DNA of 64,000 nt from an uncultured delta proteobacterium. Lineage in GTDB: Bacteria; Desulfobacterota; WTBG01; CAIYCZ01; CAIRTM01. A program made the position numbers and the translations under genes. The notes under the pieces were generated by a model, which saw only the letters and a program-made list of their open reading frames with translations, did no database searches and was not told the DNA's origin. The stretch lies in NCBI GenBank assembly GCA_963718965.1, contig CAVRBJ010000038.1:86402-150401 (forward strand), in the 5' to 3' direction. Of this stretch, positions 45,896 to 48,742 are shown one piece after another. Within the stretch, counting starts at the first letter, position 1, and each line of letters starts with the position of its first letter.

Positions 45896-46906
45896 CTATA
45901 CCAGGAACTGCTGCAGCCGGGACTCCATCTCTTCATAGTGGAAAAGCCTGCCGAAATCCATAAGGCCGGACAGGGCACGAGAGTGAACCCTGAACCCGCT
46001 CTCCTCGAGAATTGAAACCGGATTTAAACCGCCGATCACGATGGCGCCCGCACGGCCTTCGCTCACCGGAATATCCAGAAGCGGCTGGCCGGGGCGGCCG
46101 ATACACATGAATGCGCCAAGGCCCGCCTTTTCAAGCTTCTCAGCAATTGTCTCTACCATATCTCTGCTTTCTGCGGGAAACTCCCTGAACCCGACTCCGA
46201 TACGGCCATTGCCGGTTTTGATAGCGCCGATATAGTTGGTCATGCCGCTGCGGATAAAAATCTCTAGGGGGTCAATGCTCGTGCCGTCATACATGATGAT
46301 CTCGACAAACCGCACGGGCTTCTTGTCGCGCAGTTCCAGCACTCCGCCAAAACGCGAATTTGTGGGAATGCCGTGCTGCAGCAATACGCCGTTGAGAGTA
46401 ATCGAGCAGACAGTGCAGATCCCGATCATGCCCTCAGGTACGGTCAGCTGACCAATGCGCTCACCGGGAGCAAGAAAAGTAATCAAATTGCCCATGGCAT
46501 AGCCATCGGCATACACTTTCTGCATCATGGGAAGACACTCGGCAACCTGACGCGGATCCGCCAGCGTCGTATTCACAACAAGCTTTCCGGTTCGATTGGC
46601 AAGGTTGAAATTCATACGATAGGTCATCTGGTCTATTTTCGCGGAAAGAAAGCCGACGCGCTCAATCGTCTTGCTTGACTCGAATTCAGACAATCCAAGC
46701 TCGGTAATGCGATGGCAGCACTTATCAGTTTTTTCGATCAGCCCAGCATCAAACATTTCCTGCAAATAGAGCCTTACGGTGCGCTCGCTTATTTCATGTC
46801 CTTGCGACAAAAGCTCCTGGGCTATTTTGGAGCTGCGCATGGGCTTTTCAATATCTTTGATTATGCTTAAAATAGCATTTTTTTTCTTTGCAGCTTTTTC
46901 ATGCAT
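45896..46906 (-). CDS. nrpR: NrpR-like regulator (winged HTH plus one DUF128/NRD domain)
   Basis: Intact 336-aa ORF. ...ILSIIKDIEKPMRSSKIAQELLSQGHEISERTVRLYLQEMFDAGLIEK...ITELGLSEFESSKTIERVGFLSAKIDQMTYRMNFNLANRTGKLVVNTTL... matches the N-terminal architecture I know from methanogen NrpR (HTH, then an NRD beginning ...RVGF...). It is divergent from gdhA. Confidence 0.75.
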   Translation of the reverse strand: MHEKAAKKKNAILSIIKDIEKPMRSSKIAQELLSQGHEISERTVRLYLQEMFDAGLIEKTDKCCHRITELGLSEFESSKTIERVGFLSAKIDQMTYRMNFNLANRTGKLVVNTTLADPRQVAECLPMMQKVYADGYAMGNLITFLAPGERIGQLTVPEGMIGICTVCSITLNGVLLQHGIPTNSRFGGVLELRDKKPVRFVEIIMYDGTSIDPLEIFIRSGMTNYIGAIKTGNGRIGVGFREFPAESRDMVETIAEKLEKAGLGAFMCIGRPGQPLLDIPVSEGRAGAIVIGGLNPVSILEESGFRVHSRALSGLMDFGRLFHYEEMESRLQQFLV

Positions 46907-47199
46907 TCCGGCAAAACCTCACAGTCTCAATTGCAGCAAAAATTAATATACTACTGCCGATTTTTATAACATCACAATAACGGTTTTTGAAGGTTAACAA
47001 ATATTATATGGCTAATCAAACATTTTTTAAAAAAAAGTACTTTATCTGAATTGTCGATAATTGGCAAAAAATCCTATCGTAAAAAAAAAATATGGCATTT
47101 TTGCCAAATAATAAAGCTAAAATTTTAACAATTATATGCTAACCATTCAAAATAAATTGACTATTTACAGTATTACTGTTACATATATCAAAGTTAGCA

Positions 47200-47252
47200 G
47201 GCAATTCATTGCCGATTATATGGCATTTGATTGCCTTTTTTCCGATACGGAA
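47200..47252. promoter_or_regulatory. Three consecutive palindromes upstream of gdhA (candidate operators)
   Basis: GGCA-ATTCAT-TGCC is at 47200-47213 and GGCA-TTTGAT-TGCC at 47222-47235, with centres 22 bp apart. TTCCG-ATA-CGGAA is at 47240-47252. A related TGGCA-TTTT-TGCCA is at 47093-47106. All lie in the 477-bp AT-rich nrpR-gdhA spacer. Confidence 0.35.
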
Positions 47253-47383
47253 TGTGTGTCAGTTTTATAACGAGCGCAACAGTAATTGACAGGAAACATG
47301 CTCTAAACAATCCGAAAAGGTTCTTACGCGGAGCTTTTTACGGACACAAACAAATAACTATCTACAAAACGGGAGGTTGCACC

Positions 47384-48742
47384 ATGTCGGTTATCAGTGA
47401 AGTACTTGATAAAATCAAAAAGCAGGACCCGAATCAACTTGAGTTTCACCAGGCAGCGCAGGAGGTTCTTGAAACTCTTGAGCCCACAGTGAAAAAGCAT
47501 CCTGAATTTGTCAAGGCCAAAATCTATGAGCGCATAGTTGAGCCGGAACGGGTCATCATCTTCCGCGTTCCCTGGGTCGACGACAAGGGCGAGGTACAGG
47601 TTAACCGCGGCTACCGCGTTCAGTTCAATAATGCTATCGGTCCTTTTAAGGGCGGCCTTCGCTTCCACCCATCGGTAAATCTAGGCATTCTGAAATTCCT
47701 CGGCTTTGAGCAGATATTCAAGAACTCGCTCACCACACTTCCCATGGGCGGCGGCAAGGGCGGCTGCGACTTTGACCCCAAAGGCAAATCAGATATGGAA
47801 GTCATGCGTTTCTGCCAGACGTTCATGCGCGAGCTGTACCGCCATATCGGCCCGGATACGGATGTGCCGGCCGGAGATATCGGCGTCGGCGGTCGCGAAA
47901 TCGGCTACATGAATGGCTATTACAAAAAGATCCGAAATGAGCATACCTGCGTGCTGACCGGCAAGGGCCTTGAGTACGGCGGAAGCCTTATCCGCCCTGA
48001 AGCGACCGGCTATGGCTGCGTATACTTCGCGGCTGAAATGCTTGCGACCCGCGGCCTTGATTTTAAAGGCAAAACAGTAGCCGTCAGCGGCGCCGGCAAT
48101 GTTGCCCAGTATACGATTGAAAAGGTCAATCAGCTCGGCGGCAAGTGTATCTCGGTGTGCGACTCCAATGCCACCATTATCGACGAGTCAGGCATTGATG
48201 CTGCAAAACTGGATTATATTATGGATTTGAAAAATGTCCGTCGCGGCAGGATCAGCGAATATGCAGAGAAATATCCCAAAGCCAAATGCATCAACGGCCA
48301 GAGCATCTGGGATGTTATCAGCTCTCAGGGCATTAAGGTTGACGTTGCTCTTCCTTCGGCAACCCAGAATGAAATCGACGGCAACCATGCAGCCGCCCTT
48401 GTTAAAAACGGCTGCATCTGTGTCGCCGAAGGCGCAAATATGCCCTCTACCCCGGAAGCCGTTAAAATCTATAAAGATGCCAAAGTACTTTTCGGGCCCG
48501 GCAAGGCGGCAAATGCAGGCGGCGTTGCAACCTCCGGCCTTGAAATGTCACAGAACAGCCTGCGCCTCTCCTGGACCCGGGAAGAAGTCGATAGCAGACT
48601 GCACCAGATCATGAAAAGCATTCACAAATCATGTATCGATGCTTCTGAAGCTTATGCCACAAAGGGTGACTATGTGGCAGGAGCAAACATTGCAGGCTTC
48701 CTCAAAGTCGCTAAAGCAATGCTTGCAAACGGTATTGTTTAA
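47384..48742 (+). CDS. gdhA: NADP-specific glutamate dehydrogenase
   Basis: The gene is intact. The ATG at 47384 follows GGGAGG. ...[56 protein letters not shown]... is the Glu/Leu/Phe/Val dehydrogenase active-site region. The NAD(P) fold motif is GAGNVA. The longer ORF start at 47231 is unlikely. Confidence 0.95.

Follow-up and report, generated by a model that had tools for sequence, protein, structure and literature searches.

The stretch of DNA analysed here, hereafter called the window, comprises 64,000 nucleotides of contig CAVRBJ010000038.1 (positions 86,402 to 150,401) from an uncultured delta proteobacterium. It contains a gene for a relative of the archaeal nitrogen regulator NrpR, placed divergently from a glutamate dehydrogenase (GDH) gene, and the spacer between the two holds palindromes that are likely operators of the regulator. 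The nrpR-like gene occupies 45896–46906 on the minus strand and encodes 336 amino acids. The predicted regulated target, gdhA, occupies 47384–48742 on the plus strand (ATG at 47384–47386) and encodes an NADP-specific GDH of 452 amino acids, which scores 755 bits against NCBIfam model NF006929 (cut-off 536) and also matches Pfam families PF00208 and PF02812. The spacer (46907–47383) measures 477 bp and is AT-rich, as a first description of the locus made from the letters alone (the sequence-only reading) had stated; its GC content is 31.7%. In archaea, NrpR is a repressor of nif and glnA that binds GGAAN6TTCC and is released by 2-oxoglutarate (PMC2723118, PMC4902934, PMC9765008).

Pfam profiles place a winged helix (PF08461, E 5.9e-13) at residues 11–74 of the regulator and a single NRD sensor domain (PF01995, E 9e-83) at residues 84–321, the latter spanning profile positions 1–236 of 238. 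These matches bear out the winged helix-turn-helix plus DUF128/NRD architecture assigned earlier, for which a profile comparison of the NRD had been suggested, and also the resemblance in length to the short, one-NRD form NrpRI. The only solved structure matched on sequence is PDB 3NEK, the NRD protein MJ0159 (phmmer, E 4.4e-27). An AlphaFold model of the protein (mean pLDDT, the model's per-residue confidence, 78.5) retrieved the same structure with Foldseek (E 2e-15, target-normalised TM-score 0.82–0.85), and in the winged-helix region its residues 2–67 follow the order helix-helix-helix-strand-strand, with block means of pLDDT between 70 and 90. At E ≤ 1e-10 the protein has 2,819 homologues, of which the top 120 come chiefly from metagenome bins of Desulfobacterota and Syntrophorhabdaceae, and the automated names given to homologues by JGI read 'NrpRI'. 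The cysteine of the motif TVCSITLNG (C167) is unvaried in 26 homologues, and the motif aligns to TICAVTLDG of MJ0159. Conserved cysteines of the Methanococcus maripaludis NrpR have reportedly been implicated in the response to 2-oxoglutarate. Judged by its domains, the 336-residue protein belongs to the NrpR family, as a bacterial representative of the single-NRD short form. A tblastn search with it found no second NRD gene in the window.

The spacer holds two classes of palindrome built from the half-sites GGCA and TGCC. The first, with six bases between the half-sites (N6 class), is represented by two tandem copies on the gdhA side, at exactly the positions given in the sequence-only reading: O1 (47200–47213, GGCAATTCATTGCC), which matches the extended form GGCAA-N4-TTGCC perfectly, and O2 (47222–47235, GGCATTTGATTGCC), which departs from the extended consensus at one position. 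Their centres are 22 bp apart. The second class, with four bases between the half-sites (GGCA-N4-TGCC; N4 class), lies on the nrpR side and was overlooked in that reading. It consists of a site at 47094–47105 (GGCATTTTTGCC), which is proposed to be autoregulatory, and a degenerate copy that was read from the sequence at 47064–47075 (GGCAAAAAATCC as read on the plus strand and GGATTTTTTGCC in the nrpR direction), the two centres being 30 bp apart. The presence of N4 sites on the side of nrpR implies a predicted autoregulation of the gene.

That the palindromes might be chance features of an AT-rich spacer was suggested by their number in the window as a whole, which holds 3 copies of GGCA-N6-TGCC where 2.5 are expected, a count that taken alone is not significant. 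As that count is at chance level, significance was sought in a local shuffle and in other genomes. Of 100,000 shuffled spacers, not one contained two or more GGCA-N6-TGCC sites, and with up to one mismatch allowed, GGCAA-N4-TTGCC matches the 64 kb at O1 and O2 only. The decisive support came from conservation in other genomes. In an alignment of the window with its five closest relatives (L001, L003, L004, L005 and L006; NrpR 81–96% identical), the half-sites are unvaried and the bases between them vary, which is the pattern of a phylogenetic footprint. This holds for O1 in each of the five; O2 is kept in L001, L003, L004 and L006 and degenerate in L005; the N4 site at 47094–47105 is kept in 5/5; and the position aligned to 47064–47075 reads GGAATTTTTGCC or GGTAATTTTGCC, and this site too is kept. 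Together with the enrichment and consistent placement of the motif over a much wider set of loci (below), these data effectively refute the chance explanation. A further palindrome that the sequence-only reading had noted directly after O2, TTCCGATACGGAA at 47240–47252, is present as described and was rejected as a part of the system: it is unconserved in L001, L003 and L006, even among relatives with a 94–96% identical NrpR, and is therefore probably irrelevant.

Confirmed nrpR loci numbered 354 in a scan limited to one genome per species, and the best 80 of these (820 kb) were analysed. They derive from Desulfobacterota, including Syntrophorhabdus and Syntrophus, from Dehalococcoidia and other Chloroflexota, from Elusimicrobia and Hydrogenedentes, and from other groups. 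When the spacing x in GGCA-Nx-TGCC was varied from 0 to 14, there were 126 occurrences at x = 4 and 98 at x = 6 as against 13–44 at each other value, so that the two spacings found in the window are about four times commoner than the rest. The archaeal operator GGAA-N6-TTCC was present at background level only, with 28 occurrences in the 80 loci against the 98 of GGCA-N6-TGCC. The density of sites (at most one mismatch to the 10-nucleotide core) was 31.6-fold higher in the 460 bp preceding nrpR (5.24 per kb) than in the remaining sequence (0.166 per kb). Among the 74 of the 80 loci with sufficient upstream sequence, an N4 site precedes nrpR in 69, an N6 site in 66 and both in 62, and in 61 of these 62 the N4 site is the closer of the two to nrpR and the N6 site adjoins the divergent gene. 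Phasing is conserved as well. Pairs of N6 sites exactly 22 bp apart from centre to centre, as in the window, occur 39 times across the loci and are the commonest N6 arrangement, and pairs of N4 sites 31–33 bp apart also recur. Both classes share one consensus, C/T-GGCAA-(N2 or N4)-TTGCC-G/A. From these features the tandem GGCA-N6-TGCC palindromes are likely to be NrpR operators.

A second location of N4 sites was observed in Syntrophorhabdus-type loci, where a tandem pair (CGGCAATTTTGCCG, 24 bp apart) is kept in the 3′ intergenic region right after nrpR (L016 7071–7106; also L015, L018, L019, L021, L022, L024, L026 and L008). Convergent genes stand on either side of the pair, and GGTTATAGGT-type repeats, together with complementary copies, flank it. 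Its role could be that of an auxiliary operator for looping or that of a small-RNA promoter.

The position of the sites relative to the promoters bears on how they might act. A promoter for gdhA is predicted at 47157–47185 on the plus strand, with a −35 box TTGACT (47157–47162), a 17-bp spacer and an extended −10 element formed by TGT and TACATA (47177–47185); its −35 box sits in an unvaried block of the six-way alignment (AGTCAAT on the nrpR-oriented strand). For nrpR, a promoter is predicted at 47122–47150 on the minus strand, with a −35 box TTGAAT (47150–47145), a 17-bp spacer and a −10 box TAAAAT (47127–47122) preceded by TG. It scored 9/12 with a TG extension in a consensus scan and is mostly kept in L001, L003 and L006. 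The two −35 boxes stand back to back with 6 bp between them. Transcription would be expected to start near 47192 (+) for gdhA and near 47115 (−) for nrpR. Relative to these predicted starts, O1 covers about +8 to +21 of the gdhA transcript, and the N4 site at 47094–47105 covers about +10 to +21 on the nrpR side. The arrangement is general: in 51 of 56 loci, TTGAC[AT] is found on the strand of the divergent gene, at most 70 bp before the first N6 site is reached, and the distances from the start of the −35 box to the start of the N6 site cluster at 21–22, 30–32, 42–44 and 52–56 bp, about one helical turn apart. The distance to O1 in the window, 43 bp, belongs to one of these recurrent classes. 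At such distances the operator would cover the −10 box, the start site or the initial 20–30 bases of the transcript, which is the usual location for a repressor. On the nrpR side of L016, a direct reading gave the same layout as in the window, with TTGCAA-17-TATGAT followed after 10 nucleotides by GGCAAAATTGCC. Operators just downstream of a conserved −35/−10 pair, as predicted here, fit repression.

The identity of the divergent gene changes from clade to clade. A bacterial NADP-GDH takes this place in the window clade (L001 and L003–L006), in L037 and in L057, and in L041 it is an archaeal-type GDH (NF040817, 618 bits, under the 750-bit cut-off of that model). The usual partner of nrpR is another protein, of about 546 amino acids, which has a partial match to the glutamate-synthase family PF01645 and a cysteine-rich N-terminus of the form CxxCxxxCxxxC. 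Of 48 loci sampled, Pfam identified it as the divergent neighbour in 30, and tblastn found its gene in 58 of the 80 (for example L016 4126–5766); no NCBIfam model covers it and sequence comparison gave no solved-structure relative. The link of nrpR to gdhA rather than to glnA or nif, put forward in the sequence-only reading, thus stands for the GDH-bearing loci just named and does not describe the usual arrangement. One operator cassette fronts three unrelated types of enzyme, each of which is expected to turn 2-oxoglutarate into glutamate. A link between gdhA and the NrpR family also recurs in another form, in L014, L033, L035, L040, L050 and L051. In these loci a gdhA about 4 kb off is followed by a full-length NrpR paralogue in the same orientation (39–44% identical), and the resulting gdhA-nrpR2 operons carry another repeat upstream instead of GGCA-type sites. 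A small open reading frame (ORF) of about 76 amino acids (...EEEWE.DH...LR.KFHLLRYYL) is conserved ahead of such operons (L050 12282–12700; also L014, L035, L040 and L051), with two direct repeats like TAGTATTTTCCCCTAT upstream of it. These repeats do not resemble GGCAA/TTGCC and may serve the NrpR2 paralogue as its operator. The genes downstream of nrpR are heterogeneous (PAS kinases, PEP-utilising enzymes, PhzF and a few glnA, the last in 2 of 36 sampled neighbours) and were left out of the system; the listing of related loci gave no exact operator match in front of them.

The explanation that we favour, with a probability of about 0.65, is that the bacterial NrpR represses gdhA and its own gene through the GGCAA/TTGCC palindromes and is released by 2-oxoglutarate. 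According to this model, a dimer of NrpR, or a dimer of dimers, would bind palindromes with these half-sites. Bound at the N6 pair (47200–47213 and 47222–47235), just past the predicted start of gdhA, it would block transcription of that gene. At the good and the weak N4 copies (47094–47105 and 47064–47075), past the predicted start of nrpR, it would exert negative autoregulation. Binding of 2-oxoglutarate by the NRD would make NrpR leave the DNA, by analogy with its archaeal counterpart. A build-up of 2-oxoglutarate would then induce the aminating enzyme, the inducer being the substrate of the regulated enzyme, and such a substrate-induced homeostatic loop would be sensible for all three types of target. 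We infer from the conserved association of motif and gene that NrpR is the protein that binds the sites; its role as a repressor at this locus is suggested by the placement of the sites, and 2-oxoglutarate as effector by the archaeal precedent.

Several observations weigh against this proposal, and the first concerns the specificity of the motif. A scan of metagenomes with the pattern GGCAA-N4-TTGCC-N8-GGCAA-N4-TTGCC, aimed at other members of the regulon, returned at least 120 contigs (L081–L200), of which those inspected were chiefly from human gut. None of the 120 loci listed encodes NrpR, GDH or a gltB-like protein, so that the scan is uninformative on the regulon and the pattern is not unique to NrpR. 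In the forty loci inspected, 22-bp direct repeats that each hold TGGCAAnnnnTTGCCA form arrays of three to eight copies, on contigs of mostly 38–51% GC, and these arrays look like iterons of plasmid or other mobile-element origin. The palindromes of the window could be unrelated to NrpR and represent iteron-like repeats, the site of another factor or a sigma-54 promoter, since TGGCA...TTGC looks like the −24/−12 elements of the latter. A sigma-54 promoter (consensus TGGCAC-N5-TTGC) was rejected on spacing: GG and GC are separated by N9 in the N6 class and N7 in the N4 class, that is, by 9 and 7 bp, and sigma-54 requires 10 bp. As for iterons, the window holds two copies and no array. The motif, moreover, tracks nrpR over Desulfobacterota, Chloroflexota, Elusimicrobia and Hydrogenedentes with 32-fold enrichment and in a fixed order. 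An origin unrelated to NrpR is for these reasons considered very improbable.

Other points concern the direction and the signal of the proposed control. All promoter assignments are predictions from consensus and conservation, and the −10 box of gdhA (TACATA) in particular is weak, was read straight from the sequence and was uncalled by the consensus scan. GDH is the classical ammonium-excess enzyme, usually of low affinity, and its induction by high 2-oxoglutarate, a signal of nitrogen limitation, opposes the enterobacterial pattern. These points agree with an alternative in which NrpR binds the sites and either activates gdhA or serves as its dual regulator, or in which it responds to another ligand such as glutamine or glutamate, with GDH expressed in nitrogen excess as in enterobacteria. 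A weak −10 would fit a need for activation, the effector is unreadable from sequence, and the N4 sites, whose positions are about −93 and −124 when counted from the predicted start of gdhA, are described as lying between the promoters. The N6 sites, however, lie downstream of the conserved −35 box in the 51 of 56 loci mentioned above and overlap the −10 box, the start or the early transcript, which is typical of a repressor. 2-Oxoglutarate is the expected substrate of every one of the alternative target enzymes, and each characterised NrpR is a repressor released by that compound (PMC4902934, PMC9765008). We regard activation, or a different ligand, as distinctly unlikely. The autoregulation included in the favoured model is itself unlike the situation in methanogens, where the expression of nrpR has been reported to be unresponsive to nitrogen supply (PMC9765008).

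A last set of difficulties arises from the two spacings and from the surroundings of gdhA. It would be unusual for one winged-helix dimer to read both a 4-bp and a 6-bp spacing, and a rigid dimer is unlikely to tolerate a change of 2 bp. A paralogue of NrpR, 32–44% identical, is found in at least 19 of the 80 loci, and different proteins could therefore read the two classes. This is the basis of a two-regulator explanation, in which an NrpR of the window type binds N4 sites only and a paralogue encoded elsewhere in the genome binds the N6 sites and controls gdhA. Two further observations favour it: the gdhA-nrpR2 operons of the six loci described above, and loci of Dehalococcoidia and Chloroflexota with two divergent paralogues, in which N6 sites adjoin one gene and N4 sites the other. 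The divergent pair in Dehalococcoidia agrees with the two Dehalococcoides homologues reported earlier (PMC1852104). The half-sites and their flanks (C/T-GGCAA...TTGCC-G/A) are nevertheless identical in both classes, the paralogue is absent from the 64-kb window and from the 13-kb loci of most gltB-type examples, and the gdhA-nrpR2 operons, in place of GGCA-type sites, have the other repeat upstream. We consider the two-regulator explanation unlikely, if worth keeping in view. Two negative results bear on the extent of the regulon postulated for a single NrpR: no GGCA-type operator was found before the gdhA genes about 4 kb downstream of nrpR in loci with the glutamate-synthase-domain gene, and none of the 38 large ORFs of the window is glnA, amtB, a P-II gene or a nif gene.

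The system as predicted shares several features with that of M. maripaludis, in which NrpR (MMP0607) likewise has an N-terminal winged helix and PF01995 domains: palindromic operators with a 6-bp spacer, a tandem of a strong and a weaker site, operators located at or after the promoter as repression expects, and, by prediction here, control of nitrogen and 2-oxoglutarate metabolism. It differs in that the window protein has one NRD instead of two, the half-sites are GGCA/TGCC (extended GGCAA/TTGCC) instead of GGAA/TTCC (PMC2723118), the predicted target is GDH or the glutamate-synthase-domain protein instead of nif, glnA and amtB (PMC2723118), and the promoter is of the bacterial sigma-70 type instead of the archaeal TATA/BRE type. 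A counterpart of the additional N4 class was not found in the archaeal literature. The Methanosarcina system, in which NrpRI carries the DNA-binding region, resembles the window protein in the combination of a single NRD with a winged helix. Its second gene encodes an NRD-only partner; by contrast, such a gene is absent from the window, although the rest of the genome could hold one, and operator sequence and targets also differ. Methanosarcina NrpRII is said to contact general transcription factors of archaea that are without a counterpart in bacteria. An NRD-only gene resembling NrpRII was observed in L006 (NrpR 95% identical to the window protein): it encodes 241 amino acids without a helix-turn-helix (3292–4017, minus strand) and lies directly after gdhA. 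In the window, only 279 bp separate the stop codon of gdhA from the ORF that follows and such a gene is missing, and that ORF encodes a D-Ala-D-Ala carboxypeptidase, judged by its L006 orthologue. In bacteria, ammonium assimilation is controlled through palindromic sites by NtcA (cyanobacteria), GlnR/TnrA (Bacillus) and AmtR (Corynebacterium) in response to 2-oxoglutarate or glutamine signals. NtcA senses 2-oxoglutarate directly and is mainly an activator. These regulators belong to the CRP, MerR and TetR families, recognise other motifs, and none has an NRD.

Some further features of the window were recorded. A perfect N4-class palindrome (GGCAATGTTGCC, 48095–48106) lies inside the coding region of gdhA, where it is built by the G-N-V-A codons of the dinucleotide-binding motif. 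L006 has an equivalent (GGCAACATTGCC at 4802) and more distant gdhA genes are without it. This palindrome is probably a coding coincidence and, less probably, an auxiliary operator. In the predicted 5′ untranslated region of gdhA, a hairpin (CCGAAAAGGUUC...GAGCUUUUUACGG, 47313–47345) is kept in L001, L003 and L006 and missing from L004 and L005. A riboswitch or leader RNA in the spacer was rejected, because a search of 46907–47383 against Rfam gave zero matches, the folding z-score of the untranslated region is only −2.2, and the hairpin displayed no compensatory changes among the four sequences compared. Convergent with nrpR lies a PAS/histidine-kinase/receiver gene (42834–45873) that is split into two overlapping ORFs (42834–44189 and 44173–45873). 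Its L001 orthologue is a single ORF of 1,024 amino acids, and tblastn located a switch from frame 3 to frame 1 near 44026–44177, so that the gene is either a frameshifted pseudogene or the product of an assembly error.

Bacterial relatives of NrpR have been mentioned only in passing, as occurring in 'certain Bacteria' (PMC2723118) and as two Dehalococcoides homologues ascribed to lateral transfer (PMC1852104). Literature searches found no characterisation of any of them, the studies being confined to methanogens, in agreement with the statement in the sequence-only reading that they are barely characterised. For this bacterial branch, the present analysis provides a concrete predicted operator (C/T-GGCAA-N2 or N4-TTGCC-G/A), a predicted promoter architecture, a predicted core target, namely the formation of glutamate from 2-oxoglutarate, and a predicted autoregulation, all of which are directly testable. 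It also offers a natural case of a single recognition half-site used at two spacings. A broader interpretation, which we put forward tentatively and hold at somewhat less than even odds, is that NrpR heads a portable 2-oxoglutarate-sensing cassette across several anaerobic bacterial phyla, in which a single repressor recognises one half-site at both spacings, N6 sites gating the target and N4 sites gating nrpR. The conserved task of such a cassette would be the amination of 2-oxoglutarate to glutamate, and not nitrogen fixation or glutamine synthesis, and its target slot would have been refilled repeatedly by non-homologous enzymes. The 546-residue glutamate-synthase-domain protein, which represents an uncharacterised enzyme family, is predicted to be a likely central enzyme of nitrogen assimilation. 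If the cassette interpretation is true, this protein would be predicted to be a major glutamate-forming enzyme of syntrophic Desulfobacterota and of Dehalococcoidia, organisms (among them the syntrophs Syntrophorhabdus and Syntrophus) that are hard to study.

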